DNA from: Marsupella aquatica
Lineage: Eukaryota; Plantae; Marchantiophyta
Direction: 5' to 3'
Length of the DNA: 64,000 nt
Assembly: GCA_973895155.1 (NCBI GenBank)
Contig: OZ316893.1
Span: 16,894,645 to 16,958,644, forward strand
Below, piece after piece: positions 2,331 through 41,964 of this stretch (the stretch's first letter is position 1; each line of letters starts with the position of its first letter). The translations under genes were made by a program, and so were the position numbers. The notes below the pieces were generated by a model. It did not search any database, was not told where the DNA came from, and worked only from the letters and a program-made list of their open reading frames with translations.

Positions 2331-2596
2331 AAATATTCCCCGTCCAAACACCGGCACAAACATGACACAATTACAACAAAGCATGACAACCTTCCATTGG
2401 TATTGCCCTACTTCTTGGAGAGACAAAAAGGTTTCATTTGCCCCATGGATACGATAGTATGCGCGCATCCATATATGATGACACTTCTGGAAAATCACTC
2501 CAAAGGTGTATGACTCTACAATTATGATAGGTGTCTGGAATGACTATTGAGTATTTTAATCTTCATATCTCTTGGGTTCTTTAATGACTCTATAAG

Positions 2597-3102: not shown

Positions 3103-3490
3103 ACACCGTTGGTTAAAATGACGATAATACATTTTTTGTCATTTATCACCGTTGTCCAAAATGATGCAAATAGATTTTTGGTCATTTCAGTCATTGTCCA
3201 GAGTGACTATAATGTTGCTAAACACTGATTTATCATTGTTGTTATTAATTGTGTCATTTAAGACATGTGTCTAAATTGACCATTTAGGGAAATTGGGTCA
3301 TTTTGGTCGCATCAGTCATTATAGACATTATACAAAATGACGAAAAAATTAACATTTTGTCATTTCAGTCTATTGGTCATTGTGGACAGTCATTCCCCCG
3401 TCATTCTTTTTGTGTCATTAAAACTTTTGGTCATTTATTCATCTCTGTCATTGGGTGATTGGTCATAAAGGGCCCTGTTTTCTTCTAGTT

Positions 3491-15079: not shown

Positions 15080-15662
15080 AATCCAATGATAGGAATTGGC
15101 ATCACTATATATCCGCATAATATACATATCCCTCATTCTTGGTCCACATCCTCATCAGTTGGGGACACAACCATAACATCAGGCCTTTCCCCGATAATAG
15201 AACAAGATCGTGGCACATACGTGATGACAAGTGACCACTTCTCTGGGTTTGGGGGGTATGGAATATAGAAACATTGCTCCACATGGCTTGGAAATATAAA
15301 TGGCTCTGATGTTTGCCAGTGCGATGGCTGGAAACTAGTGGCAGACGTCTTGAGTCGTGTAAATCCACACTCATCTTGAACCACAATGAGATTGTTACTT
15401 GCAAGGTTCACTTTCATCTTGAACCACAATGGGATTGTTACCTGCAAGGTTCACTTTGAACCACTTGCACTTGAAGATATACTCTTCAAACTTTGACTGT
15501 GCATCATATGATACCACTAGGATCTCCTCTATTTTTCCATAATATGGCACAACATCTCGAATAATATTTCTGTCGTGATGACTGCTGCAAGAATCTTGAG
15601 AGAATTGTCCTTGAACTCCACAATCAAATGTATGACCCCTCTTCTCATCAAGGGAAGAAACC
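15080..15662 (-). pseudogene. Last exon of CACTA B TnpD (DUF4216-like region)
   Basis: VSSLDEKRGHTFDCGV...IVVQDECGFTRL...EPFIFPSHVEQCFY is homologous to exon 3 of the CACTA C TnpD. It is disrupted by a 43-bp tandem duplication near 15372-15457. Confidence 0.85.
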
Positions 15663-16929
15663 CCACTAGTAGAAACCGGGGCAATTTAGACCATACCTTA
15701 TAGGACTAAGCCCACTAAGTCCTTTTTCCATACTTGAAATGACTCGCACCCATTGCACCGGTTTTGTTGAAGACTACAAAAGACTATTAGTGTTTTATGG
15801 TTCACTAAAAGACTATGAGAAGTAACCTTGCTACTTTGTGAACGGTGAATAGTCTAGCACATCATGGGTAATGTTCACTTATGTTGAGGAGGGGTAATTC
15901 TGTAAAGAGGGAGATAGCAAGGGGCATAACTCAATAAATGGCCTTATTTGTGACAAAAAAGGTTTTGGAGTGAGGTTCATGGAGGGTGGACTACGGAGGG
16001 ATCGATTACTAACTCCATCAATAAAAGGCCGAGATGCACAAAGGTAGATTTGTACCGGTCTCAAGGGGGTGTGGGTTTAGGGTTAGGGGGTTGTCCAGGC
16101 GAAGAACACTCGATTGAAATAGTGACGCAATGGTTTAGGGTAAAGGAACATGTTTAGGGACCCTAACTTGTTTGCTGCCTTGGGAGGATCTTGAGAGCCT
16201 GAGCTTGCAAGCAGCATGCACTCTAAAAATGGCCCTTGGCATTGCAAAGATAGTCTGGCCACAGTCGAGTTGTGAAGACGTTTAGGGGGTTTATATGTCA
16301 AGGCTAGGGGGTGGCTGGGTTTTCACTAAAGGGGGTTTAGGGGGGTTTGATGTCAAGGGTCGGGGGTTGCATGTTAAGGGGATGGGGGTTTAGGAACCAT
16401 TGGATCGTTGGCATCATGTCCATTGACATCATGTTCCCCATCATGTCCATTGACATCATATATGTCGGGAAAGATAATTGACAAATTATTCATGAGGGTA
16501 GGCAATTTGGACAATGTTCACTTGTGTTCAGGAGGGGTAATTGCATAAATTAAGAGGGTGATGACAAGGGGCATCACTCATTAAATGGCCTTATTTGTGA
16601 CCAAAAGAGGTTTGGTTTAATGAAGTTCGATCACCACAGATATTTGCTAAGGCCAAAGTATTTGTTTAGCGACACTACACTAAGTTGTCACTCACAACAC
16701 TTGAGTGAATGGAGGGGGTTTATGGAGGGTCAGGATAATCTTGCCGTTACCATGTCGGCAACACCAGTGACTTTGGTAAGGGTATCCCAAGCTAGGGGCC
16801 TGTACCGCTTGCAGTACCGTTTGGACACCCGAGTCGCGCGACCGTTGGAAGGGAACAAGCCGGTTATGCAACTTTGCTTACACTTAGCAGGTTGTTGATG
16901 TGTTTAGGGATCCCGCCACATTCCCAACT

Positions 16930-17150
16930 TGCGGAGCAAGGTTTATTGTGTTCTCTTGGTGGGATCGGGAGTTTAGGGATTGGAGCAAGGTTTTATCGTG
17001 TTCTCTCGATGGGATTGGGAGCTTAGGGATCGGAGCAAGGTTTTCCGTGTAATCTTGGTGGGAACGTCTCTACAGTGAGGTTTAGTGTTCCCATTTTCTT
17101 GTGGTCGGCTCTGTGGAATCCGAGAAGAGGGATCGGGAGTTTAGGGATGC
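16930..17150. repeat. Short tandem repeat GGAGCAAGGTTT...GGGATCGGGAGTTTAGGGAT (~3 copies plus partial)
   Basis: Units visible at ~16933, 16982 and 17032. Confidence 0.75.
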
Positions 17151-20100
17151 TGCAATGACCGGCTCTCGAAGGGTGAGGTGAGACAACCAATTCAACGCCC
17201 TTTTGCTGCACCCTTAAGCTGTTGAGCTGCCATTGAGCTGGTGAAGCTGCATGCGGGTTGCATCTGTTCTACGGGCGCACTATCTGCCTGGTTTATGGAT
17301 TGTGGACTTTGTGGGGAGCGACAATCGGTAACAACGTGAAGGCCATCAGAGGCTGGGCAAAGCAGTTTAGGGTGCTGTGGTCGAGGAGGAGCTCACCACA
17401 AATTGGGGAGAAGACGCGGGTGACGAGCTGGGGGCGGGGAGGAGCTGCGGTCAGGGAGGATACAGACCGTCTACAGAACGACTGGCAGTCGGAGCGGCGC
17501 AGGAGCTTAGAGTGGGCCAACGCCAGCTGAATACAAGCCAGGAGTTGCATAAGGTGAGAGTCCAAGTTTTGTGTTGCTTTAGTGTTCGAGCAGCGTGCTG
17601 CCATTTCAGCCACAGTGCACCGCCTTTGAAGCTCCCATTGTCAGGGCTGGTAAGACATCACGGCTACATTGCTTTTCTTTGTTGTCCTCTGTCTTTTTGT
17701 GGGGACAACCTACTTGATTTGAGCTGCGCAAATCGTCATAAGTTAAGGCATGCGTCATGCCATCTGGATAGTGTGCCACCGAACTGTGGGAGGATGAGCA
17801 ACGCGTGGCTGTAAGCAGGTATTCTGTCAGCACAGGCGAGACTTCATTGTTAAAATCCTATTGCCTGCAATGTGTCTTGTAATGTGTTTTTCCTCATTCA
17901 ATCAGGAGCTGAGAAGGGTATTGTTAGGCTTCAATTACTCTGTGTTTTTCTCCAGCTCCATGGTACAGTTTGTGCTTTGTCTGGCGCCCATGCTCCGTCG
18001 ATCGTAGAGCTAGGTCAACCGAGCTTTGAAGAGGGAGGCTGTGGGAGCTCCTTACTGTGCTGCAGCTGCTCTTCAATCAACGGTGTAGAGATTGTAGCTA
18101 CGATCAGTGTTTGCGGAGCTGCCAGCCGGGTGCTTCGATAGTAGAGAAGAGCAGCCACAGTGATTCAGTCCTTCTCCTACGTGCAACCAAGGACCCCCTG
18201 TGCATCGTAAAGTGTGACCTCGGAGCTGAGCTGCGCACTGTCTCTATTACATGCCTTGTTGTTCTCTATTACATGCCTTGTTCTCCCGTCCACTATTTCC
18301 TGTGATTTTCTTTCTTCTAGAAGAGAATGGTGATTTCTTCTTCAATCAAACAAAACCCCACCCAACCACCACCCAAGAACGTGGGGTGCGCGCTTCTCAA
18401 TCCTCCTCAAACTGGCCCCAAGTCTGCTGAAACCCAATATATTACCCACCGGCACCAAGGGTCCAGTCCCAACCCGTCTTTCGCTTGCCACCCTCCTCAC
18501 TCTCTCGCGCATCTATCTCCCGATATTTCACGCGCAGCCGAGCCCACCAAAAGCTCTCTCCCTACAATCCCTCCTAAATCAACTTTCTCGTTTCCTGCTG
18601 CTGCTGATGTATGTTTGTTCTCCCCTATTTTTGTTTACTGATTGGTCTCTCCACACTTCCTGCTTGACATTACTGTTTTGCTCCTCCTGGATCCAAACAT
18701 GCCTTGTGCCCCGTGCTCCAACCTGCATCCTTTTCTTTACTGAGGGGGGGACCACAGCCTCCAGCCATACCTTGTGGCAGGCCTGGTCAAGACGGTGGTC
18801 GGTAGCTCGTTTTTGCTTTTTTCTCTTTTGTTTCCCAAGCTTCTGGGCGAGGGCATTACCATTCTGGATTCTCCGCGAGGCGCCACTAGCTTTTTTTCTC
18901 GGTTGCCCGTGTGCCTGCCTTCTTAGTTTTGTTTTTTCCTCAAGTGACCGGGCCATCGCTGTATGCAGATTTTTCTTGTTGTATTCATGTACAATATTTT
19001 ATTGTTCTATCTAGGTTGTGGCAAGCCAACAAACTGTTGACAACCAACATGGAATAACAACTATGCAGTGCAATGGCAGAGGACACTGTCCAATACAGGA
19101 ATGACATGGTTATGTTTTCAATTCCCTGCTTGGATGAGGCGTGGTGTTGCTTGTAATCATGTATTTCTTCACACTAGAAAAGCAGTCTGTCAGATGAGGT
19201 TGTCGGGATTGTCTGTGGGTCAGTCATCTTACGGACACCTAGCAACGTCAAATGAATGGCGGAAACGGGCCATGTTGTCATTTTGAAATTTGTCTTTCCT
19301 TTTGCCATGCTACCCAATCATTTTGTTAGTCCATGAGTCATAGATTCATAGATTCTATGTTTTGTGCTTTGTCTAGAATGCTATGGCGCCCATGCTACAA
19401 TTTGTGGTTTTTGTCTAAGCACAAATCCTCTCTGTGCCTGGTCTCTGTGTACCGTCATTTGGATTGATTGTGCAGACGTTTCCTCTTCTCCCAGTCCTTG
19501 TCATCCACCAGCCAAAGCACATTGGATTGTTTTCAAAGGAGGGCTGTGTAGTTCGGAGGGTTTGATCTATGCAGCGGATTTGAGCAGATTGGCGGTTGTT
19601 AGTTTCTTCTTGTAAAACCTGTCTGTCTTTTCTGCTTTTGGCCATGCTCCTTCACTTGTTGCTGCAAGCTCAATGTGCTTCAGCTATGGCAATATTCACT
19701 TACCCTGTCCCAACGGCACTGCCATGAGCTGTAGGACAGCCAACAGAAGCAGATTGTATCAATTGCATGTAAGTCAGGGTATTTTATGTATTGCGGAACA
19801 ACTGTCCAAGTATGCTGCAATGGTCCATCTTGCGGAGCTGAATGAGCCAATTTCATTTTCCCTGTGCACTTCTATTTCTCAGAGAATTCCCTGGTCATGC
19901 TCATTTCCCCCAGAGTTAGAAAACAAAGAAGAAGAGCTGACTAATTGTAATTCCAATCCATATCCTGATCGGTCAAGGATTGTTCACTACATTGGCCTTG
20001 TCATTGGCCGAGGTCACCAAATTTTGCTTGGTTTCATTCCTGTGGAGCACTGCTGTGATGGATTTGTCGTAGCATTCTGCAAACTCTCACGGTTTGCTTA

Positions 20101-20469
20101 TGGCCATTATTTGCAATTTGCTGCTACTAATATGTCTTCTTCTGAGCAGCATACACCAGAAGTAAGCAATAGTGGAGGTTTAACTGCACATCAACACATC
20201 TAGTGAACTACCTCTCTGCTGCTCACTGGAGGGTGAGACTTTCACTCTTTCTGGATATTGTAGTTTGTAAGCAAGTTGATTAGGAGTGTTTCATGCTATG
20301 TTTACACTGTGACCCCTAGCTGGAACCAATGGAATGACACAGTGAGTGGGAACTGATAATTTAAGGTTGGTTGCTGTTGGTGAGGCAAGTACAGCTCCTG
20401 CTCACCTTGCTGATCGAAGGTGCTTATCAGAGGACGTGAACACACGACATCTCCACAAAAGCAACACTT

Positions 20470-20919
20470 ATGGTGAGGACCCGCAACGCTGAACATGTGC
20501 GGCTTGCACGCAAGGCAGAGATGTTGCGCCTTGAGTATGTCAAACTTGGGATCCTTCCAGCCCAGTCTGCATGGTACTTTGAGTACCCAGTTGTTGCCAG
20601 GAACAACTACAGCCGGCCTGTACCTGCTTCTCCACCCTTCCCAACATCCTTGGTATTTCTGTCTCTTGTACATGACCCGCCACAAATTAGGACCCAAGGG
20701 TGTGTGCACAGTTGCCAATATGACTGTCCTGCCTGTAGGGCTTCTGGCCTAGAGTTGGATGACCGTTCTCTTGGATGTCGGTTTTTTCACAGAGCACAAT
20801 GTATCATCTGGAACCACTCGCCATCCTGCAGTGTGCCTGGCGATGTCACTTGTCCTGCCCTCCCAGACCCCACCACCGGTCACTTTGGTGTCTACACATG
20901 TTTGGATCACACGCTCTAG
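20470..20919 (+). CDS. Cys/His-rich hypothetical protein, possibly a degenerate zinc finger; CACTA C cargo
   Basis: ATG-initiated 149-aa ORF containing CVHSCQYDCPAC...GCRFFHRAQC. Same strand as the other cargo ORFs; no family recognised. Confidence 0.35.
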   Translation: MVRTRNAEHVRLARKAEMLRLEYVKLGILPAQSAWYFEYPVVARNNYSRPVPASPPFPTSLVFLSLVHDPPQIRTQGCVHSCQYDCPACRASGLELDDRSLGCRFFHRAQCIIWNHSPSCSVPGDVTCPALPDPTTGHFGVYTCLDHTL

Positions 20920-21588
20920 AGGACCACTTGTCACACCACATGCACAAACTAGAGACCATTGACCTATAACTTAACACTTTGACTTGAACAGAGAGGATAT
21001 TTACTTAAGATTTTGAATTATGACCAATTTTGGGTCCAGGGTTTAGGGTCAACAGTACATAACTTATCCTATTATGGCTGCACTAAGTACAATATCCTAA
21101 TTTAAGAGGCTAGCACGCTCACTTAAAAGTCTCCTTTCAAAGACTGGAATTAATGGGCCATGTGATAACCTGGAAAAAGTGATTTATGCCTAACTTATTT
21201 GTCTCATTCACTATCATAGCCTATTTAGGATGTATAAATTACAACCCTGATCACACTGCTTGATACCAATCCTGTTCAAAAAATGCCTGTTTTACATGTC
21301 ACGACTGTTATATGTGATTCAAATGCATTAAATCTTGTTGCAGATCTCCTTTGGTGAATCATAGCCACAAAATTGAGGTGTAGGTGGAGCTATTGTACGA
21401 GGGGATCAGTTTTTAGTGTGGGCTCAACAAACCAAAAAGTATGTCTACTCTGCACATGTGTGTGAACATTTCATTGCAGTAGCAATTGCCACTCTAGTCT
21501 ATATGCTACACTGTACTTTTTGTACACTGCACTAAATTGTATTGTCCGTGCACTCTGCTAAATTGTACTATCTGTCTCATGCGTAGGC

Positions 21589-22255
21589 ATGGCACGCCCT
21601 AAAATCCGAGCCAAGAAGCGGGGGACAGAGGTGAGCAACACAGGTGTAGTTGGGCCAGATGGTAGTAACTTCTCCGCAAGTCAGATTTTCCAGAAGGCAG
21701 CTCATTGTTGTGCCATTTGTGACGATGGTGGTGGCTTAGCCTTGCATGAGGCATTTCCACCTCAACCCGAAGTCTGACCTTGCTGCAGAAAACAACTGTC
21801 CAGGGGTGGGCCTCCCGTCAGCACACCAGGGAGGCTGGATGTGCACTGATTGTTTGGAGAAGCAGGCTAAGTGTGCACAGTGTGGGAAGTTGGGGTCTTA
21901 TGAGGGCTCTGTTGATGCTCCACCACTTGTTAGGAAATGCCCTGACAGATATTGTGTGAGGTTCTTTTGTTTTTCATGTTTGCCCGATCTTGCCACAACT
22001 TGCCCACTTCATAAGTGCAAGGCATGTGGTCAGCACGATGAAGATTTCTGGGTGGACATAGTCCACTGTGTTAGGTGTCCCACCATGTGGCACTTTCATT
22101 GTTTGAAGGAGCGTCAAGCAGAAGGCTATGCTTGTGACAGACACATCTATGATCACTCTGCACATGGTGTTGATCGATGGATCTTCTATTGTCATCGCCA
22201 TGCCATAGATCCTACTTTGCACACTCCCATGAGAGATCACATTTCTTGGCTTTGA
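21589..22255 (+). pseudogene. EDM2-like multi-PHD-finger module with a small frameshifting deletion at ~21742
   Basis: CAICDDGG.L/CMRHFH...C.DC.EKQAKCAQCGKLGS...C..FF...CPLHKCKACG...CVRCPTMWHFHCL...IFYCHRHAIDPTLHTPMRDHI. This is colinear with the EDM2 PHD region as I recall it (CAICDNGG, CPLHKC, IYCQEHEIDEELLTPVRDHVKF). An acceptor-like GCGTAG lies just before the ATG. Confidence 0.8.
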
Positions 22256-22819
22256 ACCTGAATAATATACATGCATAGTGCACCTGATGTGGATACCTTG
22301 GAGATTGCAGACATTCCAATTTTGAGAAGAAGGACCTCTGTAGGAGAGGATGCTTAGGCAACAAGTACCCTAAGTTCATTACTTGTTCCTGGGTACATGC
22401 CTTCAAAAACTGCCCTTAAGCCTTCTAGGAACTTTTTTAACTCTGCAATCATTTTGATCACGACTTACATGACACTGCTTAAATTAAATCAGGACTTCTC
22501 ATTATGAGCATATAAGTTACAAGGCTATTTAATTTGCGAGAATTCCCTTAAAGTGTACCAACATTTTGTATTCTCATTGAATGTCTGCCCATTTACAACA
22601 TCTGTATGTGGCATCACAAAACAATTGCACTTGTCACCTTCAATATTGTGAAGGCACATATTCAAACTATGAGGTGCATGCTTGCAGGTGTCTAGTACGT
22701 TTGTCCCAATATTTCTCCCGTTTGGAATCGGAGCAGAGACTCACCAGACGACTGGACTGGACCAAGTTATAAACGCAGCATTTTAAGGGCCCTTCGATTA
22801 TCAGGTGAACGCATTATCT

Positions 22820-22977
22820 TCCGGTCTGCAGTGATTAGGTGGCCCGTGTGTACATGGCCTCTAGGAAACGTACAAAGGTTGACCACCCGCCTCTGTTGTC
22901 CGGTCTGCAGTGATTAGGTGGCCCGTGTGTACATGGCCTCTAGGAAACGTACAAAGGTTGACCACCCGCCTCTGTTG
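22820..22977 (+). repeat. Exact 79-bp tandem duplication spanning the BRCT gene start
   Basis: TCCGGTCTGCAG...CCTCTGTTG occurs at 22820-22898 and again at 22899-22977. Confidence 0.95.
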
Positions 22978-23781
22978 GCTGGAATCAAAGCCATTTTGAT
23001 TCCTGGCCACTATGGGTTCACCCAAGTGAGTTGGCCAATCGTACAAAAACGATTCTCAGAGTTCCATGGGACTGAAGTCAAGGACATCACTCCACAGACT
23101 ACACATGTTGTTGCGGGGACATGGCTGGATGTGATGAACAAGTGGTCATGGTCCTTCATTGATTCTGCCATTACCAACCAAGGTCTAAAAGTAGTTGAAG
23201 TCTCTTGGCTGACCGATTCTGTTAAACATAGGTGTGTACAGAGTACTGAGCAATATGAGTTGTGGGAGAGTGAGGAGGCCACTGCAGAGGCTTTGGCTGA
23301 AAAGGAAGCCTATGAAGCAGCGGCAGAGAAACCCAACTTTGCTTCTGTCCAATATGGACCTGTTGTCAACATAGGACACCATCCTATGCGTGCAGATGCT
23401 ATATTGAATGAGCATGGCAAGGAGAGAAATACCATTATGAAGGGGTTCAGTGTGGTATTTGCAGAAGAAGGAATTGGGGAGACTAAGTGCAGACTGTACA
23501 AGTCTATAGTTGTTGAGCTAGGTGGGACAGTGGAGGAGAGTCTAACAGAAACCTCCACTCATGTTGTAGGTCTGTCATACATGAAAATATGCAGAAAATT
23601 CTTTAAGACAACAGTGCGTGATTTTGTCATGAACAACAATCTTTGGGTGCTTTCCCCTGATTGGCTTCTGGAATCAGCAGCTAGAGGGAAGCGACAGAAT
23701 GCTTGGGACTTTGATATTTTTGAGGCCTGGCCCTCCAAGATTCAGTGGAGATGTATGCTTAGCAAAGGTGGGAGAGAGTGA
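22933..23781 (+). CDS. Tandem BRCT-domain protein (282 aa); CACTA C cargo
   Basis: Two repeats with BRCT hallmarks: (G)G-x-V...THVV...VV/VL-x3-W-L-x-D/E-S (TTHVVAG...VVEVSWLTDS; LGGTVEESLTETSTHVVG...VLSPDWLLES). The frame is intact and AATAAA lies at ~23825. Confidence 0.85.
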   Translation: MASRKRTKVDHPPLLAGIKAILIPGHYGFTQVSWPIVQKRFSEFHGTEVKDITPQTTHVVAGTWLDVMNKWSWSFIDSAITNQGLKVVEVSWLTDSVKHRCVQSTEQYELWESEEATAEALAEKEAYEAAAEKPNFASVQYGPVVNIGHHPMRADAILNEHGKERNTIMKGFSVVFAEEGIGETKCRLYKSIVVELGGTVEESLTETSTHVVGLSYMKICRKFFKTTVRDFVMNNNLWVLSPDWLLESAARGKRQNAWDFDIFEAWPSKIQWRCMLSKGGRE

Positions 23782-23957
23782 GGAGTAGGAGTCCCTCATA
23801 TTTTTGTATAAAACACAATTTTGTAATAAATGTGATCCTTGAACTAACTCATCTTGTCATGGTTGGTCGCAGTTGAAGTGATTGTTGTTTCCTGCTGCGT
23901 GGGGTGTGACTGTGAATCTACTTGCTGGGCTCTGTTTGGCTGAAGACTTTGGTGGGT

Positions 23958-24491
23958 ATGCTGCCTCTTCCAGACCGTCAGGCCCTATGTAGGGTCCTCC
24001 TACGGGTTGCATTGTGCATGGCTACTGCTTGGGCTTACTTGTGTGGATTGGTAACCAGACAGAGTGTAGCTCCATCCGAGATAATGCCTGCAGACCTTGG
24101 ATGTGTTGTGAATGCTGTGGTGAATGAGGATGCACAGTCGGAAGAGGACATTTACTTTTCAGCAGATGAGTTAGACAAGCACGATGCTGTAGGTGGTTCC
24201 TTGTTGCCTGATTTGGCAGATGATATAGTTCTTACACATGTCTGGCCGAGGGTTCTTGTGGTGTCTGGCGCACAAGATATCTGCAAATATAGACTAATTA
24301 GTACCCAGTGGAGGGACTTGGTAGCAACATGTGCACCATGGAGGGCACTGCTGCCACTGCTTGTAGGCACGGATCGAAGACCACCATGGCATGAGCAGGG
24401 TTTAGACCTTGATGACTTAATGTACATGCCTGAGTACCTCAGGGCTGAGTGGCATCGACAACAGGATTGGTATCCGTATTTGATGTGGTAG
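23958..24491 (+). CDS. F-box-like protein with a hydrophobic N-terminus; CACTA C cargo
   Basis: SLLPDLADDIVLTHVWPRV...CKYRLISTQWRDLV matches the plant F-box pattern L-P-x-L-x-D-D...R-x-V/I-S-x-x-W-R. Confidence 0.6.
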   Translation: MLPLPDRQALCRVLLRVALCMATAWAYLCGLVTRQSVAPSEIMPADLGCVVNAVVNEDAQSEEDIYFSADELDKHDAVGGSLLPDLADDIVLTHVWPRVLVVSGAQDICKYRLISTQWRDLVATCAPWRALLPLLVGTDRRPPWHEQGLDLDDLMYMPEYLRAEWHRQQDWYPYLMW

Positions 24492-24817
24492 TAAGATGAG
24501 GACATCTCACACCGGTCTCGCACCTGGCACCTGTGTCTATGACTATACATGATTGGACTCTGATATGGTCATGGATGTACGTGCAGAGGCAGTACATGTG
24601 AGGACAGCGGAGGAGTTGACACCCTCAAACATTTAGGAATTTTGTCTCATTCACTTGAGAATAGGTACATGACTCAGGCACCTATATTTTTTGTTTTTTT
24701 GTTTTTTTGGAACGTTACGTATTTTGGCAAGTACAGTCGGGGGTGAAATCCTTAACAGGAAGTGTATTTTTCACTTGCATAATAAAATGACAGGGTGCTG
24801 AGTGCGTGTGTATAGTG

Positions 24818-27800
24818 ATGGCTCCAAGGTTGCCTCTTCACAACCCATTTAGGATTAGGCATCATGATTCTAAATTGTGGATGCGTGAACAAGCCCGGGC
24901 CGCCCAAGGTAGGAGTAGGAGGATGAGATGCCCATGCACACAGTGCCAAGGATTCAAGTCGTTGAGTTTGAACACTGTGCACCTTCACCTGCTGCGGCAT
25001 GAAAGGCACCCTCGGTGGAGGGTTTGGAATGTACCAGCAGAAGAAGACTCCTCTGATGAAGAGTGGAGAACTGACTTTGTGGATTCTAATACAGCTAGGC
25101 GTAGAGACTACGTAGAGCAGGACATAGACTGTGCAGAGGATGGTCCTGGGGTCCAACATGAGAACGTGGATGACCAAGATGGAGATGCAGAGGCAGTCAC
25201 TGAGGACGGTGGGATGGATGTCCCAAGAATGGTTCAAGAGATTTTTGAAGACCTTGATGCTTTTTACGACACAGTGGAATCAGAAGAGGACAATGAACCG
25301 CAGCCACACATTGGCGACGGCCAAGCTCAACCTGACTTTGACATTGGGGAAGGTGCAGCAGAGAGGGAGTGGGTGTTTGGGGGCCCAAAACACATCAAAG
25401 AAGCTTGCATTCCTATCTACGAGGGGTCGAACTGCTCCAAGCTGGGTTTTGTCGTGTTGTTGTTGAACATCTATGGCAATCACAATGTTCCCAATATATT
25501 TGTGACAGAGTTGTTGACCTTCCTGCGCCGAAATGTGTTACCAGATGGTAATTCAATTCCAAAAAATATGTACGAGGCTAGGAAATTGATGTCTAACCTT
25601 GGGCTGAACTATGTGTCTATTGACGCATGCCCTGATGGGTGTGTTCTCTTTCGCAAAGAGCATGCAGATAAATTGACATGCCCTCATTGTGGTAAGCACA
25701 GGTACAAGAATGTAGGGAAATGTACACACCCTGCCAAGGTTCTTCGTCATTTTCCTCTCATTCCTAGACTACAACGTCTGTTTAGATGCCCTGCCATTTC
25801 CAAGCTGATGACATGGACTCCTGATAACAAGAGCAGTGATGGCCTGCAGCGTCACATTGGAGATTCCAACCATTGGAAATTTGTTGATGAGAGGTGGCCA
25901 CAGTTTGCTGCAGAGAAGCGGAACTTTCGATTTGGTCTATCACTGGATGGAGTAAACCCATTTGGAGACAAAAACAACCGTTATTCATGTTGGCCGGTTA
26001 CGCTGCTAAATTACAACCTTCCCCCATGGATGACTACAAAGAGGTTTTTTGTCATGATGGTGCTGTTAATCCCTGGACCAGCTTCTGTGACCGAGCAATT
26101 CATAGATATCATGTTGGCTCCAGCAGTGGAAGAGTGGAAGACTTTGTGGATAGAAGGGGTGTTAACCCATGATGTTCTGAAGGGGCTTCTTCGACCCAGC
26201 CCCTTTAGACTGCATGCAATTTGTTTGCTGGATATAGCAGATTACCCAGGCCATGGCATCATATCTGGACGAGTGACAAAGGGCTATGTGGGGTGCACAC
26301 CATGTGGGAAAAATGTGACAAGTGAGTGGTCGCATGCCCTGCACAGTATGAAATTTCAGGGGCATAGAAGGTATCTGCCTGTTGATCATCCTTACAGGCA
26401 CACACGGTCTCAAATTGCACACTTCAACAACAAAACAGAGCTTCGTGGCCCACCACAGAGGGTCACCAGAGAGCAAGTCCTGAGGTGGGCAGCCAGGAAG
26501 GCTGATTGGGACAAGAGAAGTGCCACTGATCGAGAACCTGAGGATCCAGTGGTGAAACACGGTGTGAAAAGACAGACCTTGATGGACTTGGAGTTGGAGT
26601 ACTGGAGGGTAATGTACTTAGCCTCCAGCCCCTGTATGATTGCAATTTTAGATTGGAGCAATGGTGGATTGATGTTGGTTACAATCCTCTTATGTGGTTA
26701 ATTAGTGTTTCTGTTGTTGAATTCTTTGCTTTGTGGAGTGCAGGAATTCGAGCCCAGCAAACACAATGTGGACGTCATGCACATTGAGAAAAATATTTGT
26801 GAGAGCTTGCTGAAGTTCTTGTCGGGTGAGAAAGATACAGGAGCAGTTCGAGCTGATATGCAACAGAAGGGGATTCGCCCTCACCTTTGGTTGAAGCCCC
26901 ATGCAAGCAATCCCAATGTACTTCTCAAGTTCCAAGCTCCCTATGTGTGCACACAGGATGAATGGAAGACATTCTTGTATAGATTGAGCTGTCTGAAAGT
27001 GCCCTTTGGCTATGCTGGTGCCTTCAAGAAGCATATTACAAAGAATAAACTTGGCAGTATGAAAACACATGACTACCATGTGTTGATGCAGCACATTCTG
27101 CCCCTATGCCTCAGAGGTCTCATGCAGAAACCAGTCCGTAATGTCATTCTTCGACTGTGCAATGTATTTGGCCGTATATGTGTGAAAGTGTGGGATCCCC
27201 AAGGATTGGAGCAGTTGAAGCAGGATGCTGCTTATGTCCTCTGTGACTTGGAGATATACTTCCCCCCTGCTTTCTTTGATGTTATGACTCATCTCCTAAT
27301 CCATGTGGTAGAAGAGCTAGGGCAGTATGGGCCAGTCAGTACCAGATGGATGTACCCTATGGAGCGATACATGAAGTTGTTGAAAGGTCATGTGAGAACA
27401 TACTACAGGCCAGAGGCTTCCATGGCATTGGGGTACATTAAGGATGAGACGTTGGGATTCCTAACAGAGTACATGGCTGGGTCTGGTGAAGCTATGACAA
27501 GAGTTTGGAAATCTGGTGAAGATGATGGAGTGAGTGGCGAGGTTGTTGAAGGTGTGGGACGTGCTGTTCAGCTGCCTGTTGCGATTCGAGACAAGGCTCA
27601 TTCATATGTGCTGGCAAACACAGAGCCTATGCAACCATGGTGGAGGTGAGTGATTGAATTGACTTGCCTTTGTTGTGATGCTTCTTGTCAGTTCCAAGGG
27701 TGATCTTAGGTTGTCATGTGTTGTTTAGACCTAACTATGCCTGTACCTCATATTGCAGGGAATATGATATGCAAAAAGCTGCACACTCTGGGCAGCAGGA

Positions 27801-28518
27801 TCCCTTCCCACAGTTCGAGCAGTGGATTTGGGTGACAATTCGAGAGCATAGTAGACATCACCCAGATATGGAGAAGGATTTGTATCTTCTATCTGTGCCA
27901 CCACGATTGTCTATTCTGACCTACAAACGGATGAGAGCTTATGGAAATCATTATCGAGTGAGGGATGAGCAGGGTGACCATTGTGTATCATATGATTGTG
28001 GTTTGATTTTTGTGTTTGAGCAGAGAACCTCTGAAGAACAGAGGGGGTGGATGAAGATGGGTTACGTGGGGGAGTTGACCGACATTTGGGTGTTGAATTA
28101 TGGTAACACAAGTGTCCCAGTGATATTGATGAAGGGATCATGGGTGAAATCAGAGTGGCAGAGACCAAGGGCCACCATGAAGCGTGATCATGATGGGTTC
28201 TTGTTGGCCAATTTTAGGTCCAGAGTACCAGAATGGTCTGAGCCTTTTGTTTTCCCTAGCCAAGTTGAACAGGCTTTCTTTGCAGATGTGGAGGAGTCAC
28301 ATGGCTGGAGGGTGGTATGCCATAGCCAAGCACGGAACAGGCGGATGGATGGAAGTAAAGTAGAGTTCAGTTTGGATGACCATGCTGCATTCGAGCATCC
28401 TAGTCATGAGACTGTACTTCCAACTCGGGCAGGGACTGACTACATCCCCTTAACATTGAGAGAGACATATGATGAACCTGGGCAAATGGAATATGATGAG
28501 GTTGATGATTTGCAATAG
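24818..28518 (+). CDS. CACTA TnpD/Tnp2 transposase, 3 exons (24818-26608, 26744-27645, 27759-28518), 1150 aa, apparently intact
   Basis: Contains the CPCxxC...HLLRH N-terminal zinc motif, IDACPDGC, LSLDGVNPF, YSCWPV..NYNLPPW, DVMHIEKN, MKTHDYHVLMQ and RWMYPMERYM. GT-AG introns join the three ORFs in frame (3453 nt). Confidence 0.95.
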
Positions 28519-28695
28519 GCAACAGCTGGCGATTGGCAAGTATGAGGTTGAGGATGACTACCTGCACAGAGTCACATAACGGGAATTGCTGCCTGGAATG
28601 ATGTTTAGGATAGTTGGATATGCATGAAATTGATTGATACTTTGAATTTAGTGTGCTGATTCTCCCTGTTTGGTTGTGGGTGCTGTGCAGAAGCT

Positions 28696-31600
28696 ATGGG
28701 GGAAGAGGGTGATGACATGGAGACAGACATGGGGCTTGGAGAGTGGGGTGAAGAGGAAAGATTGGATATGGATGGAGACCCAGATGCAGGGGGCTCACAG
28801 AAAAATGCACCTGTGCAAGATGCACAGGGCCCTCATCAAGTCCCAGGTAGGTGGGCAGTTAGAGAGAAATCACATAATCCATACCCTAGAAGGAGCCAGA
28901 GTTATTGGCAAGGGACGCCTGATAATTATGATGATGACTATGATGGAGCAGAAGATGGATGGGATGAATATGAACACCCAGAGCGTGGTAGAGACGGGTA
29001 CAGAGGGCAATGGAAAGGTGAGGAGGATGATTGGACAAGTAAGTGCCTTGTGCTAGTGATTTTGTGATGGTAGTAGAGATTTAGCTCAATATGCACTTAT
29101 CTGATGTGTAGCTAGGGCAAAGAGTTTATCTTACAGGTCCATGAGTGTGGCATGTACCTGTTGGTATGCAGACTCTGATTGGGACAATCACGAAAACAAC
29201 AAAGGCCATCCACGTTCAGATAGGAGGCAATCATTCACAGGCGGGAGAAACGCCCCTAATTCATCAAGACAAAGCAATAGGACAGGTGGTCCAGAACCAT
29301 CTATGCGCCAAGGGAGAGGTAACTTGGTCATTGCAGAATTGCTCTGAAGTCCACTGTATATTTGGCAGCGGGATTTATGATTCATACTTACCTAATGTAA
29401 GTGACTGTAAATGGATCCTGTAAATGTGCAGGGACTCCACGGAGGTTTGGACAATGCAATCCAGGCCGTGGGGGGAGATCAGGCCGTGGAGGGACCCCAG
29501 GCCGTGGGGGGACACCAGGCCGTGGAGGGACACCTAGTAGCGCTTCAGGGAGTACCAAGGCAGGAGACAGTAACAAATTTGGTAAAGTAGAAGTGAATTC
29601 CGAAGGTTGGATAACTCCCACATGTGATGGTAAGAACCGTTGGCATTCTGACCTAAGAGGAGAAGTATTGCGTTGGTTAGATTTGAGCATTACAGAGTTT
29701 AGGAGTCAGAACAAAGCTGATTGGGCTGCTATCTGCAAGGACATTCTTGAATGGTGGGAGTATGTTGGTAATGATGGTAAGGGCCCAGTTGAAGATTGCA
29801 TATCAAATTATGCAATGAGGATTTTGAAACAAGAGAGGCATAGGTTGAAAAGGATGTGGATAGACAATGGTTCTAACAGGAGAATGCCACCACCCCCATC
29901 ATTGGAACTGGATCAATGGACACGGTTAATCAAAGGGTTCATGTCGGAGGCTGGACAGAGCAAGAGTGAACTGATGTCAAATGCTCGAGGCAAAGTGAAA
30001 CACCTTCACAGGCTGGGAGAGGAAGTTATGCTCCAGTGAAAGAACAATTGGTAAGGCAGTGACATGCCTGATAGTAAGCCTCAAACTTATCATCTTGCTA
30101 CCATTATTACATTTTCATTGACAATCAACACTTGGTTTCATTCATATGTATGTTGATGTGGACTGCAGAAGAAATTGACAGGTGAAGAACCATCAGCACA
30201 AGAAGTGAGAGAGGAGTTCATGAAACAAAGGAGTGAGGTGACAAGTGTAACTTCCAAACAGGTGATTATGTTGTAATTCTGTATGTTCTGTGACTATTTG
30301 GCCTTGAGCATCAGAAAGAAATGTAGTAGGAAGTAAGCAACCAGTTCTTGGGGACAGTTATCTGAGATATGTAAGCTGTGTTTTGACAGGGAACTGTTAC
30401 AACTCTCACAGAGATGTGTGAACGGTTGAAGTCATTAGAGTGTGGACTCCCTCGAGTGGAAAGTAAATTGGCTGATCGTTTGGATATTGTGGAGGTATCT
30501 GTAGCGAACCTTCTTGCATCAGTGGAATCTAATTTCAAGCTTGTGATTGAAAAATTGGGTGGTTCCCAACCAAACAATGAGGGCAACATTGTACAAAGTG
30601 TGCCCTTGTTAACAAAAAAGGGAATTGGCAAATCTGACACAGGTATGGAAATGACACCGGCCCATTGTTCATTGTGTCCTATGTTCAAATGTTAGAAGTA
30701 AGTTTTCATGAATTGAGTGAATGGTTTGAATGCAGGAAGAGTGGAGGCAGAGAAGGACCCTGTAATCAGTAAGCAGAAGGGCAAGAAGGTTGCTGAGACA
30801 GGTAACCTGCTATGATCCAGTACATTACATTTGAAAAGTGCATGGAGTTTTGTGAAGCTTAAGCCGGTTGGAGGTAATCTTTTCTGTAAGAACTGGTTGG
30901 ATGAACTGGGATCTGAAGTGACATCATGATTGATGTATCAGGTGATTCAAAGAGCAATAATGAAGAAGATGTGCCCAGTGCCTCAGTGACCATAGCCAAG
31001 GAGGTATCAGGTAAGCTGATGCTTTAAATTCCTCTATATGAATGTTGAGCAACAATTCAGTGGTTAATAGATTCAACCTGAATATTGTGGTGTGTTTATT
31101 GATCAACAGAAGCAGACATGGAGCATATGGCAATGGCAAAGAAGGGGAAGAAGGCTGTTCATAATGGTAAGGAGATAGTGACAACTTTGTGGTTGGTGAC
31201 ATGTACATTTAGCACATGTGATGAGTGATTGACTTATGTTGGACATGACACTGAATTGTAGTTGATGCAGAGTTGACAGACTCTCAACCAAGTGGGAGTA
31301 GGGTGAAGCGACGTCGAAACTTGGGAGCAACATTGGATGCAAGTAAGATTGTAGATGCTTCAATTGAAGCAAGTACAATGTTGGCAGATACTGAGATGAT
31401 GTCGCAGGGAAATCCTGCTACACAATCAGAAGTGTCAAATATGGATGCAGATTCTTTGAAGAAGAGTGTAGCCAATTCTCGATCACCAGCACAAAACACT
31501 TGTGCCAAAGTCATGACTCGCAACCAAGGTATGAATAATGTCATGTATAAGCCACCCAGGAAAGCCAAGAAAAACAGCCAGGGTAAGGTGGAGGTGATAG

Positions 31601-31866
31601 CCACAGCAGAGCCAGTCCATAATCTTCTATCATGGGAGGATGACTCGCAGGTATGTGTGGGTACAGGCATTTTGCGACCGGATCATGCAAAATTCCATGG
31701 CAAAGTGGTCCCGGATGACCATGTAGTAGTGTTGTTGACTACAATGATTGTATCTGATTGTAATTTGCCATTTCCGAATAGAGACGATGATCCACCTCAG
31801 GAAATAATTGCAGATGCAGTAGGATCTCTTGTGCTCTGGCCATCAGAGTGTGTTAGTCTGCAGTGA
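28696..31866 (+). CDS. CACTA TnpA-like multi-exon gene (Ptta/En/Spm-like core, Tnp1-like C-terminus), probable 1-bp frameshift near 30015
   Basis: Many small GT-AG exons. The core reads QWTRLIKGFMSEAGQSKSELMSNARGKVKHLHRLG, with RGSYAP in a shifted frame. The C-terminus reads FHGKVVPDDHVVV...LPFP...DAVGSLVLWP. Confidence 0.75.
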
Positions 31867-32293
31867 CTGAATGCAAGTGTAGATAGCATCATGTGAATTG
31901 TGTCACATTTTGACATTGCCTTGGAAAGATCCAAGAAATATCTGTACCAATTTTTCCATTTGGTAAAGAGGATGAAGGAGACGTTGTGTGTGACATTGAT
32001 ATTTCTGAATTCTGTATGTATGAAACAAGTGATTGATGTCAAACTATGGCTCTATGGTGATTGTCTATGATACTTGAATCTATTTTATCATTTCAGTATT
32101 AGTGTGTATGGTATAGAGGAATACTTTGTGACCTTCTTTGTAGTCTATGAAATTTGAATCTATGAATTCATATTAGTGTACATGGTATAGAAGATGGCTT
32201 TCTGAAACTATGTATTCTAATGTTAACATGATGAATGGTGAACTTATAGAGTGAGTTCATTCCAAGTACACAATAAAACATGAATGCAATATG

Positions 32294-35244
32294 TGTTGTA
32301 ACTCATACTTGAGTTAAGTCTACCTTTGGGATAACTACCTATGTAACTACCCTAACTACTTAGGCCGTAGCCACATGTACATATTCTACCAAGAGTAAAG
32401 ATGGAACCAACTCTTTGTCTCATTTCTCCCACAACACGTTATCAGCACGAGCCTAAGACTGGCTGAATTTTTTTTTAGGCCATGACTGATTCACTCTAAG
32501 ACGAAGAAAGAAGGGAAAAGACGTGATTCGAATGTGCCAAAGTTTTTTTTGCGAGAGCTGCTTGAAGCGCTGCACGAGCAATTTTTCTTTGGAAGAAAGG
32601 CCAAGGAAGAATTGATCCCAGCTATGGTGAATTGAATATCAAGGCGCCATCTTATTCGGTGCACGCTTTTCAAGTCAGTATAGCAGTAAGGCAATAGCAA
32701 CAGTCAGTCAGAGCCAATGTTGTTGACGCGTTCACAAATCTGGAAACGAGCCAGCGATTGGAACTCCAGCCATTTCGAGGAGTCGGAAGTTGGTGGCCAA
32801 GGTGTTTTCTCACTCCCTGGCGAGCAAGACCCTCACACCAACTACATCTTTTATTGATAAGATTTCTAGCGAGCACCAGCTCACTGACGGCTGGTCGTGA
32901 GCGCACAACAGATTGGAGTACGACAACCTACTCTATTTCCTGTGTTTGCTTCCAGTTCTACTCGAGTCTACCGCTGGAGGCATTCGAAATGGACGAAGCA
33001 GTAACAGGATGTTGTGATTTCTTTCCCGACACTACGCTTTCCCGACACTATGCTGACAGAAAAGCAGGACAAACATGGGGAAATTAAACCCGTTGGTCGC
33101 ATCACTGGAAAACGAAAGAAGGATTTGGAGCAATCGCGTAAGAAGTGCAAAAAGAAGCAAGTGAAGAAAGTCGCGACTTACAGACCATAGAAAGTAGCGA
33201 CCTCCACTTCAGGCAGCGAGATCATCACACAAGCAAACCGATCCAAGGCGCAGATCACAGCCTCAATTCCATAAGGAACTCGTAAGGATAGCAGGAGATA
33301 AGGAAATTTTTCTTAGAAGATTCGAAGAGAACTCAAGAAGAAAGCAGAACAGAACGGAAGTCTATCCCCAACCGAGGATCACAAGATTACATTCTTCGTT
33401 AGTCATTGATGAGTCTTTTGCCCTTCGAGAGTAACCGATCTTGAAAAGCAGCATTCCCCTCCAGGGTGAAAAGGATAAGAAGAGCAAGACGACAGCAATA
33501 GAGAGAAGACGATCGAAAAGCGTAGGCAGGTCCCGTGAATTACCCTCATTCGCCGTTGCCCCTTCTGGAGAGCAACGATGGGTTTGTTCGAGAGCAGCTG
33601 GTACCCTGAAGGAAGATGATAAAGAAGAGGAAACCGAGCTACTGGATGCTCTAGTTTCTAAGCCGTACTGCGATGATGACGGCCTTTCCTACCGGCATTC
33701 TCACCAGACTTTACTATGTTGATGGAGACACCAAGAGCTTGATCGACTTTACACATCCATGACAATGGAGATTGAAGGAAGATTTCACATTTAGGGAGCA
33801 CGAACAAAAGACCCTCGGAGAAAAGAGGATAAGAGCACGAAGGGAACGCGCGCAGCAAAGAACAAATCTCGCAACAAAAATGCTGAAACGTCGAGAAAAC
33901 GTCGAGAACATACCGCTAAGTGCAAACCCTCCTTAATTGCAAAACCCGTCAAATAGATTTGCGTATACAAAGAACAATGTGCACTGAACCAGGGAAACAC
34001 ACATACTAAGAACGGGGACGAAATGGCATTAAAATGAAAGATATCTATTGGGAATATTACCATATAAGAATTGCCATTCACAAATTCAGGGGGAGAATTG
34101 TTTTTCCCAACGTGCCTACTGCACTTAAAAGTTAAGCTCCGTGCCTACTACACATGGAAGCCAATGAGTGCCTACTGCACATGGAAGTAAATGACAAATT
34201 GAGGGGGAGACCTCAAGTAAGACTTGACATCAAGCAATGTAACCCATGGGATGTGCCTATTGCACAAGTGCCTTTCGCACCAATGAATACCTAAAAATGG
34301 AACTCTATTCCATGCATATGGCAAATCATGAAATCTAAGGAATTTTTATAAATGATTGAATATGGTGTTAACACAATCACTTACCAATACTTGATGAGGT
34401 ATACTGGATATTAAAGTACCATATGATAATATGAGGTACAGTACCAGGTCATAAGGTACCATAAGGTGAGACATGGCATGGTAAGGCACCATAAGAGATG
34501 GTGCGCCATACCCCAATATGATAACCCTACGTTGTGGATATGGTACGTGATGTGGTGCAAATAGGTTATGCCCACACCAAATCTAGGGTTGGACACCCAA
34601 TCCAATTCCAAGGCCATGGATTACACCATATCATCTTCGTTTTGTACTAATACTTTACTTTGTCATGGCATGTAATCGGTGACCATCAAGGAGTCTCCAT
34701 TTCCAGATTGGAAGGAGACACGAGAAACAATCAACCAAGGAAGATCTTCAACAAGCCTATAGTGTTGACAAACACCTTAAGAGACTTTGTAGAAATTACA
34801 CATACACTATATTCTTAAACCCAATTATGTTACACCCATGGGGATGGTAATACTCTTTCCTCCCACAAAGAAAGTAGGGGAGGTTTTAATGAGGTTACAT
34901 CCCCCACTTACACTTTACCATGCAACATGAATTATAAGACATCTATTAGGAGAAGCTTGACATTCATTTATAGTAGACTTGAGATGGCTACACCATTTAT
35001 AAAATAGGCTAGACATAAACAAAACCTATTGTATACCACTGAATATACCCAAAGTAGACTCTTGATTGTAACATTTCAACCCCAATGTTACAAAGGGGGA
35101 GTGTTGTAACTCATACTTGAGTTAAGTCTACCTTTGGGATAACTACCTATGTAACTACCCTAACTACTTAGGCCGTAGCCACATGTACATATTCTACCAA
35201 GAGTAAAGATGGAACCAACTCTTTGTCTCATTTCTCCCACAACA
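32294..35244 (+). mobile_element. Non-autonomous Bianca-type LTR element (2951 bp) with identical 143-bp LTRs
   Basis: LTRs 32294-32436 and 35102-35244 (TGTTG...CAACA) are identical by eye. TSD ATATG is on both sides, the PBS is CGTTATCAGCACGA, and the PPT is AAAGGGGGAG. No gag/pol is present internally. Confidence 0.95.
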
Positions 35245-35817
35245 ATATGTTATTTGTGCACAAGAGTGGGTTCATTCCAAGTAGTATAGTGGGGTCTTCA
35301 TCACTCATATCCAGTTGACATGAAAGACTTATACATACCCCACAAAGTATATTTAAAGACTACCCTCCATAACCTTTTTAGTCGTTCCCAACGACTCATC
35401 ATCGCAGCCCATAAAAGACTAAAAACGACTCACCAAAGCTACCCACACAAAGACTAAAATAGACTGAAAATCCAGTCTATTAAACGACTTATAAACCAGT
35501 TCTATAAAGGACTCAGTTGATTATAGTAACAAAACATACGACTCGCAGTCCTATAAAGGACTAGAGTCCTTCCCAGTCATTTCCAAGTCCTATACGGTAC
35601 TGAATAGTCGTTTAATGGGGTCTAAATACCCCCCGGTTTCTACTAGTGCCCTAAATTCAATGAAATCATATGGACATGTTACAAAAAAATATATGCAAAC
35701 ATATTACAATTTTAACATAATACACCACAAATATATTTCCAGTATACATAACTAATATCTAATGTTTGACAAAAATATTAAGAGAGGATGGTTAGTAAGG
35801 TATGTAGGATCAATCAC

Positions 35818-38561: not shown

Positions 38562-38800
38562 CTATGGACAATACAACCAAAAATCCTCTTCATGTATGAT
38601 TTACCAGGTAAAGTAATACATACTAACAAAAAATTAAGTAACTTAAGGTAAAAACATTTGCATATACATAAATAATACAAAGTAAATTATGTATTGCTCC
38701 AAAATGAGGCCTAAATGTATTACTCCAAAATGAGGCCAAGGCCATATACATAAAGGTAAGTCTCTAGTACAAAATATGGCAAAGGTGATGACATGGCAGC

Positions 38801-39631
38801 CTAATCCCACTCATAGTGTGTGAATAACTCATCGCCAGCTCTAATGGTCCTAGTAGCAAGAACTAAGCAATGGTCCTTATGATATCTCTCACCATATGGT
38901 GCCGACATTGGACCATCAGTAAAAACCCACTCACAATTGGCCCTACGCTTGGGCCGAGTCCCCACAGTACTATTTATGAAGCCAGCAATATTCCCATTAC
39001 GTATGGGGTCACCGTCTATCACTCGCTGTTCACTATACCTTCTAGTGCTACCATCAAAAGTATCCATCTCTAAGGCATATGTTTTCCACTCAGGATGTTG
39101 TGCAAGGATCATGTTCCAGTGTCTTCTCTTGTAGATGGGTCCACCGTATGGGAACAAAGTAGGACCCTCTCTACCACAAACACTTGACCCACTCACATCA
39201 TCCACAATGATGTCCTCACAAGCAAAAACCCCATAGCCATGTCTCTCTCCAAGCGTCGAAGCCTTCACAACCCAACGTCTACCCCAAACCACAACCTCCT
39301 CATCAAAACCGATAAAATATGGCAAGCCAAGAGTTGAGGCATCCCACATCTTGATGATAGAAGCACACTTGCCAGTGAACTCACATATACCCCACCTACC
39401 CTCAACAAGTGTTCTGGATGGGTCAGTGGGCGCTCGTGGCCTCCTCCTGGACTCGGGCCTGGACCGCGGTCTTCGTGTCCCACTAGGCACTTGAGGCTAT
39501 TCCTCTTCTTCCCCATGAATGGTGCTCATCCCTACACCCAAGGCTTGTGAAAGTGCATTTCCTATAGCATCTAGAACCCCTTGTGATGGGACATAGGGTG
39601 GTGGTGTCACCACTCTACGCATGTTGGATCC
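38801..39631 (-). CDS. SET-domain (lysine methyltransferase-like) exon inside CACTA B, one in-frame TAG at 39497-39499
   Basis: SET motifs: STLGERHGYGVFACEDI (motif I), LFPYGG, IDG...NIAGFINS (RFxNHS-like), ANCEW, and ATRTIRAGDELFTHY (ELxxxY). The acceptor TAG at 39634-39632 is in frame with ORF 38801-39490. Confidence 0.85.
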
Positions 39632-39729
39632 CTACTTCATCCAAAAACCCACAAACAACCATAGGTGTAAACATTGGTTCACTTGTAAGAATATGAGGAG
39701 AAAATGGCAAAGCATTGTTACACACTCAC

Positions 39730-39960
39730 CATATGGGATGAAGAAGCCCCCGGAGTAAGACCTCTATGACGGCCATGTCTCTCAATATGTTGAGCACATA
39801 CATAAGTCTTTTGAGAAATTTGGCCCACACATCTGGTGCATTGACAGAGTTGTCGAGGTGGACCACGAGGAGGACCGGTAACCTCAGGTTCAGGAGGAGG
39901 TGGTATATCCTCATCAGAGGAGGAGAAGTCACTGCTGGAAAGTTCTGAGGAGAAAGACAT
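39730..39960 (-). CDS. N-terminal exon of CACTA B TnpD (transposase-associated CxCxxC...HxxxH zinc motif)
   Basis: CQCTRCVG...CAQHIERHG parallels CPCTQCQG...VHLHLLRHE in the CACTA C TnpD. It ends at a phase-0 donor ATG|GTGAGT. Confidence 0.8.
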
Positions 39961-41790: not shown

Positions 41791-41964
41791 TTGCCGTAGC
41801 GCCCTTACTTTTGGCCTTGGCTAGGGTTCCATAGTCACCCTTGATTGTTTATATTTTCCTTTTTTTGTTATTATACTAATGTGTTTTCAGGGTACACTCC
41901 CGGTTTTACCACTTTAACTGGCCTAGTGATTCCTGGCTAGGCATCACAACAGGCAACCACAGGG

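Follow-up and report, generated by a model that had tools for sequence, protein, structure and literature searches.

Background

Several plant DNA transposons encode accessory proteins that are proposed or shown to counter silencing by the host, the closest described examples being VANC of the VANDAL elements and TnpA of Spm, which recognise DNA motifs and cause DNA hypomethylation (PMC13317346; bioRxiv 10.64898/2026.08.24.746577). Pieces of host genes are also found inside elements bounded by terminal inverted repeats (TIRs), as in Pack-CACTA elements and other captured genes such as KIU/Ulp1 in VANDAL (PMC13317346). On the host side, EDM2 contains 2.5 atypical PHD repeats and a methyltransferase-like domain, has ASI1 and AIPP1 as partners and binds H3K9me2 (PMC7529245, PMC9910501), the N-terminus of histone H3 being ARTKQTARK (PMC2861705). 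Viral histone mimics have been surveyed (PMC11738798). Here we describe a PHD-only gene, derived from EDM2, which lies within a complete CACTA transposon in 64,000 nucleotides of Marsupella aquatica (Marchantiophyta; assembly GCA_973895155.1, contig OZ316893.1, positions 16,894,645 to 16,958,644, forward strand), this whole stretch being referred to as the window. The predicted protein consists of little more than the EDM2-type PHD module and a start that resembles the N-terminus of H3.

The locus compares with the described systems as follows. The transposon PHD protein would resemble VANC and TnpA in aim, not in means, as it is by sequence a host-derived, predicted histone reader in which no DNA-binding domain was detected. 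It differs from Pack-CACTA elements and other captured genes in that the transposase is open here and the host piece, which is old, has been reshaped as a compact gene and shows conservation among diverged copies. VANC and Pack-CACTA are both discussed in a 2026 review on the capture of genes, with no occurrence of 'PHD' in the portion available (PMC13317346), and a literature search at the level of listings and abstract openings, outside subscription journals and repeat databases, found no description of such PHD/EDM2-type CACTA cargo. We classify the element as a member of the CACTA superfamily and the PHD protein as a variant among transposon-borne chromatin accessory proteins.

A PHD-only gene within a complete CACTA transposon

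The features on which the analysis centres are the following.

15664..35648, + strand: complete CACTA (En/Spm) DNA transposon, 19,985 bp, with 18-bp TIRs beginning CACTA and the target duplication CCC (TIR pairing)
21560..21586, + strand: possible splice acceptor, a pyrimidine-rich tract and AG ending 2 nt upstream of the ATG (sequence alone)
21589..22255, + strand: PHD-only cargo gene, EDM2-derived, a frameshifted copy without 14 nt near 21737 (six-frame translation, relatives, run contigs)
21592..21618, + strand: motif ARPKIRAKK, resembling residues 1-9 of histone H3 and immediately following the initiator Met (sequence comparison with H3)
24818..28518, + strand: TnpD-type transposase of three exons with two GT-AG introns (Transposase_21, E 1e-59; DUF4218, E 2e-27; splice test)

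The TIRs match at 18/18 bases and CCC is present on both flanks, a coincidence expected by chance at ~3e-6; when all CACTA/G pairs of the window were compared, this was the sole pair with 18/18 TIR bases and a matching 3-bp flank. GACTA-containing 6-mers common to both ends form subterminal repeats and are enriched 17- to 28-fold. The spliced transposase comprises 1,150 codons with 0 internal stops in the splice test, its DUF4216 and Transpos_assoc matches being below the Pfam cut-off. With this open transposase the element does not correspond to a non-autonomous carrier of the Pack-CACTA type. Among the best 120 transposase relatives the sole named match is from the liverwort Riccia sorocarpa (40%), and a scan of metagenome contigs with the transposase gave 52 pattern matches, 0 of which were confirmed. 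An earlier sequence-only reading had described the PHD module as stand-alone, EDM2-like, with an ATG of its own and borne by a transposon; its position inside this element bears out the last of these claims, and translation places the ATG at 21589.

In the window copy the N-terminal part of the protein is read in frame +1 from the ATG at 21589 (MARPKIRAKKR...CCAICDDGGGLA) and a C-terminal part of 171 residues in another frame from 21740 (PCMRHFH...IFYCHRHAIDPTLHTPMRDHISWL), with the stop at 22253-22255 (six-frame translation). The span from ATG to stop is 667 nt, compared with 681 nt in the 226-aa relative P0001, and 14 nt are therefore missing from the window copy. The frameshifting deletion was correctly noted in the earlier reading, which placed it after GGLAL; the last L of that string is already out of frame. 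Among nine candidates, P0001 and P0002 (220-226 aa) are intact, are 83% and 78% identical to the window protein, respectively, and share its start and end. The longer form is also present in 6/7 public sequencing runs from four studies, one of which is possibly the window's own source: at ~21737 the window shows a 14-letter gap relative to contigs of runs X3, X4, X5 and X7, while loose contig ends in runs X1 and X2 carry the same extra letters and run X8 has no coverage at this position. One X3 contig with the 14 extra letters accounts for a depth of 2,740 of 2,982 at this position. In X2 and X4 part of the depth crosses ~21737 with no listed insertion and may represent a minor deleted sub-lineage; the 14-nt loss may also be caused solely by assembly error. 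Since the longer form is seen in sister copies and runs, the window copy is broken and the gene family is not, and the search for intact copies suggested by the earlier reading has shown that the disruption is not common to all of them.

An exon, coding or non-coding, may lie upstream of the putative start at 21589, as the possible acceptor with its AG 2 nt before this ATG would allow.

The carrier region is also represented in the public runs. With 0-2 differences, the PHD gene, the transposase and two further cargo regions of the element (a BRCT and an F-box-like gene, described below) are matched by five contigs from X3 that measure 244-1,644 nt, and 30/30 bins between 19400 and 26400 are covered in X2, X3 and X5 (17/30 in X8).

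Derivation from EDM2 and predicted structure

A search among longer proteins passed 14 of 6,720 candidates, all of them from plants and 7 of them named EDM2, with Selaginella EDM2 the best longer match (31% identity over 230 columns). Because 14/14 carry the RFD-like or methyltransferase-like region of EDM2, the sequence comparison indicates that the PHD module derives from plant EDM2; the best longer matches are EDM2-type proteins and not unrelated PHD proteins, which favours EDM2 in the comparison with EDM2 and NSD PHDs that the sequence-only reading had proposed. Short members of the family give no match to the EDM2 RFD or methyltransferase-like region and stop directly after the PHD module, and their leader before it is only ~40 aa, the N-terminal RFD-like region not being present in the predicted protein. 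The module is indeed stand-alone and, since the two defining domains are absent, the protein is EDM2-derived yet not an EDM2. It shares with EDM2 and EDM2-like proteins the atypical PHD repeat, a first finger whose Cys is displaced and a TP-RDH extension at the C-terminus. It differs from them in the absence of the RFD, the methyltransferase-like ELP domain and the long C-terminus, and in having the H3-like start, transposon carriage and a shortened second finger with a His to Cys change. In effect, the PHD module of EDM2 occurs here in a naturally minimal version.

A relationship to NSD1-3 PHD cassettes and PZP domains is evident at the level of the zinc-finger fold family. NSD-type PHD Pfam models match the window protein and P0001 below the cut-off, and the top ESM Atlas match (0.93) is a plant NSD-type PHD cluster. 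NSD methyltransferases differ in possessing PWWP and SET domains, only the PHD models matching the transposon protein, and P0147, an NSD-type cassette, can be aligned over no more than 160 columns and is without the first-finger insertion and C-terminal extension that the transposon protein has in common with EDM2. A fold predicted from 3 sequences only reached a pLDDT (predicted local distance difference test) of 33; when redone with 100 sequences, the AlphaFold model was confident for residues 31-226 (mean pLDDT 88, predicted template modelling score 0.81). The closest solved folds are histone-binding PZP and NSD PHD domains, with five Foldseek matches at E below 0.001, the best VIA-align match being NSD2 PHD-C5HCH (Z 5.4, root-mean-square deviation 2.7 over 75 residues). 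Against the sequences of solved structures, P0001 matched AIRE PHD1 (E 9e-4) and the 171-aa frame alone gave no match; no solved structure of the EDM2 PHD module turned up in these fold and sequence searches.

A family of short members

When 1.84 billion representatives were searched with a profile, 257 matches were obtained, the best seven of which are all 166-245 aa. These seven and further short matches belong to records of Logan, JGI and ENA; Calypogeia and Riccia supply the first land-plant proteins to appear that are named and have additional domains. Two quick, midpoint-rooted trees, which do not resolve the donor lineage, place the short members on one side of a branch. In the first, built from 58 of the 130 modules passing the length filter with several liverwort rows absent, they make up 12/58 rows with an SH-aLRT (Shimodaira-Hasegawa-like approximate likelihood ratio test) support of 100; in the second, which added liverwort rows with P0153 and P0158 still unmatched, they make up 11/47 rows with a support of 99. 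In both trees the clade is separate from every host EDM2-type row and also from the short grass EDM2-like proteins. The latter (Triticum XP_037420358.1, Eleusine KAK3139582.1) are similar in having a PHD module without the methyltransferase-like domain; they differ in their placement, either with EDM2 of seed plants or away from the transposon clade, and in being without the H3-like motif, and represent separate truncations. As a side observation, the grass short EDM2-like PHD proteins P0037, P0043, P0058 and P0079 fall into two separate groups. An EDM2 paralogue clade (P0025, P0027, P0032, P0070 and P0093, the named members being from liverworts) combines an RFD-like region and PHD without the methyltransferase-like domain.

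The six full-length members have a mutual identity of 32-60%. When scored at the 26 Cys/His columns conserved in 33 host proteins, they retain the residue in 148/156 cells, and 6 of the 8 misses belong to one column in which all six members have Ala; at another ligand column the family has Cys where hosts have His. That zinc ligands, end point and H3-like motif have all persisted at 32-60% identity leads us to conclude that the PHD gene is very probably maintained by selection at the protein level.

The converse, that the gene is a neutral captured fragment of the Pack-CACTA type hitchhiking without function, would be in keeping with the broken window copy, with the frameshifted tails of several database members and with the base differences among copies, as 7/23 listed differences are synonymous compared with 21% expected (p = 0.18; 23 coding positions from 40 rows shown of 150), a result which is not significant for selection and counts against the functional proposal made below. 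We nevertheless consider neutral capture highly improbable: the ligands and the end point are conserved at this divergence, every host EDM2 row is distant from the clade, a start motif and a stop belong to the gene itself, and intact forms predominate where the runs cover the break.

An indirect sign of a further association with a CACTA element comes from a distant member. The short PHD protein P0023 (45% to P0001) and the CACTA transposase P0220 (44% to that of the window), each the sole member of its cluster, derive from ENA contig entries that both measure exactly 13,432 bp. Exact-size coincidences are expected at ~0.22 over the 22 PHD contigs and at 0.03 over the three able to hold both genes, and the other two long PHD contigs have no size match with a transposase contig. 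P0023 probably shares its contig with P0220. Scans with the PHD alignment gave 215 pattern matches in metagenome contigs and 33 in viral contigs, with 0 confirmed in either.

A histone H3-like start

The window protein begins M-ARPKIRAKK, which resembles residues 1-9 of H3. The sequence-only reading had noted a basic start, RPKIRAKKR, like a nuclear localisation signal (NLS); the basic start is present, but the order of its residues resembles H3 and not only an NLS. The pattern [AST]-R-x-K-x-x-[AS]-[RK] is found in 10/20 family leaders, in 0/138 leaders of other proteins and in 0/120 transposase starts, the expectation from shuffling being 0.04. Because this pattern was written after the sequences had been seen, the leaders were also scored by permutation: when the nine H3 residues are arranged in all 22,680 ways, the actual H3 sequence comes 13th across 15 leaders. 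Retention in register is 14/15 for K4, 13/15 for R2, 11/15 for A7, 11/15 for R or K at position 8 and 8/15 for K9 (2 of 17 rows were without an anchor and 2 of the 15 counted are near-duplicates). The sequences thus indicate that the likeness to H3 goes beyond composition.

A short H3-tail-like motif in a non-histone protein is the point of likeness to histone mimics, of which influenza NS1 and G9a are reportedly examples. The putative mimic described here differs in being located on a plant DNA transposon and in being fused to a predicted reader of the same tail.

Proposed function

We propose, tentatively and at a little short of an even chance, that the PHD protein is a selected accessory protein which would bind histone H3 on the chromatin of the element and oppose silencing by the host in the double role of competitor and H3 decoy. 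In this proposal the protein would enter the nucleus, where the PHD module would bind H3 tails on element chromatin, as EDM2 does, and compete with host readers. The H3-like start would serve as substrate or bait for host H3K4 and H3K9 writers and readers, and may in addition close the protein's own PHD until modified. The net effect would be less complete silencing of the transposase, which lies downstream on the same strand. H3K9 methylation persists within TnpA-activated Spm elements of Arabidopsis (bioRxiv 10.64898/2026.08.24.746577), and there would therefore be a niche for a helper that operates at the level of histones. The decoy role had been suggested by the sequence-only reading and gains support from the conserved H3(1-9)-like motif.

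Several further points weigh against this proposal, in addition to the post hoc wording of the pattern and the base-difference test. The transposon context is direct for the window copy only, and no run contig spans both the PHD gene and the transposase of another copy. Ancestry is shared within the family, so that 10/20 leaders represent one origin and its conservation, not 10 independent cases. The leaders of P0002, P0017 and P0108, among 19 scored, do not score (shuffle p 0.55, 0.92 and 0.55, respectively); T3, Q5 and T6 of H3 are not retained, position 3 being Pro in 8/15; and the motif is directly after Met in 7/15 rows and not in the other 8/15, being internal in one subclade. In the structural model residues 1-24 are of low confidence or disordered, and the tail is not docked on the PHD. 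Host EDM2 rows have acidic residues before the first Cys, which are missing from the family, and the second finger of the family shows changes of His to Cys and of His to Ala. The mark preference of the transposon PHD may consequently differ from that of EDM2, and the changes near fingers 1 and 2 mean that H3K9me2 specificity cannot simply be assumed by analogy with EDM2.

The irregularities of the start would suit a selected chromatin-binding accessory with an ordinary NLS, whose basic start resembles H3 by chance and whose role is other than that of a decoy: basic residues predominate in the motif, T3, Q5 and T6 are unconserved, the motif is internal in one subclade and 3/19 scored leaders are without H3 likeness. 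Chance resemblance is at odds, however, with the rank of the true residue order beyond composition (13th of 22,680) and with the retention of A7 in 11/15 leaders although it is non-basic. This explanation is distinctly unlikely.

PHD-guided recombinases are known, for example RAG2, and the protein could by the same token be an adaptor for insertion targeting, in which the PHD would read a histone mark and tether TnpA/TnpD to chosen chromatin, such as silenced transposons, with the BRCT protein helping at the cut. The focal element does sit within the transposase gene of another CACTA, and the reader-type passengers (PHD, BRCT) adjoin the transposase. That insertion is, however, one site only in a window which is mostly repetitive, there is no sign of a transposase-binding surface and the H3-like start is left unexplained. 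We regard targeting as unlikely.

It is, in our estimation, quite unlikely that the protein substitutes for EDM2, recruiting ASI1/AIPP1-type RNA-binding partners to let transcripts extend across heterochromatin as far as the distal transposase. Within heterochromatic transposons, premature polyadenylation is suppressed by the EDM2 complex (PMC10241880), and the arrangement of the element would be compatible with a single long transcript subject to alternative processing, every cargo gene sharing its strand with the transposase and 4/6 starts examined having an AG shortly upstream. Nevertheless, no short member has the RFD or methyltransferase-like region, host EDM2 already performs this job and the H3-like start is not an EDM2 feature (0/138). 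The earlier suggestion that the protein promotes full-length transcripts fits less well than the decoy role and is the weaker of the two, because the protein is without all of EDM2 except the PHD module.

Returning to the competitor and decoy proposal, a wider form of it would have a lineage of plant CACTA transposons possess a two-part counter-silencing device rebuilt from EDM2's heterochromatin reader, in which a nucleosome-docking PHD is combined with an H3(1-9) mimic that absorbs or senses H3K4/H3K9 methylation, as one item of a chromatin toolkit (PHD, tandem BRCT, F-box-like and, in a neighbouring family, SET). This form is doubtful. If the proposal is true, a second, histone-level route of anti-silencing would exist beside the route of DNA-motif recognition and demethylation used by the described plant transposon proteins, and a transposon would read histones through a module borrowed from the very heterochromatin machinery of its host while carrying an H3 look-alike. 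The 226-aa protein is small and confidently folded in the model, and near-identical copies and an open transposase are available, which makes the proposal directly testable.

Other genes of the element and neighbouring sequence

The remaining features within the CACTA element are as follows.

20470..20919, + strand: orphan cargo open reading frame (ORF), 149 aa, with a Cys/His-rich C-terminal half (open frame)
22933..23781, + strand: tandem-BRCT cargo ORF, 282 aa (Pfam BRCT, E 6.5e-14, two stretches)
23958..24491, + strand: cargo ORF, 177 aa, with weak F-box likeness (Pfam F-box, E 0.09-0.11, below cut-off)
28696..31866, + strand: probable multi-exon TnpA-like gene (Transposase_24, E 0.046, below cut-off)
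32294..35244, strand not assigned: nested element with two identical 143-bp long terminal repeats (LTRs; TG...CA) and a 5-bp target duplication (repeat analysis)

The orphan, PHD, BRCT, F-box-like, transposase and TnpA-like genes are all encoded on the + strand within the CACTA. A Pfam search with the orphan ORF gave no match below E 0.3, and all of its bins are covered in 3/4 runs. The tandem-BRCT ORF has a weak likeness to the BRCA1 BRCT (E 0.11); carried by the transposon as a protein in its own right, the tandem BRCT could recognise phosphorylated marks of repair where the DNA is cut. An exact 79-bp tandem duplication at 22820-22977 overlaps the BRCT start codon and is either copy-specific or a feature of the assembly. 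The LTR element is young and non-coding and entered the 3' part of the CACTA later.

The focal CACTA is inserted into the transposase gene of a second CACTA on the - strand. This second element is decayed and is split by the focal element into 35817-39960 (-) and 15136-15450 (-); a possible TIR begins at 13479, and a search for its partner found none. Just upstream of its transposase the decayed element contains an ORF with a SET domain at 38804-39496 (E 2.5e-6 for Pfam SET, above the cut-off) and, at 39730-39960, a Cys/His exon, a further passenger of chromatin-enzyme type in the position of the focal cargo.

Most of the window consists of repeats. An ORF at 63230-63829 (-) has a weak match to N6/N4 DNA methylase (E 4e-4, below cut-off), which is unusual for a plant repeat region. 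A long imperfect inverted repeat at 41140-42596, with nested arms that are 75-84% complementary, is possibly a foldback element or a small-RNA hairpin. Tandem arrays occupy 1-2316 (578-bp units) and 2565-3176 (83-bp units), the 578-bp unit containing a 52-bp near-palindrome.
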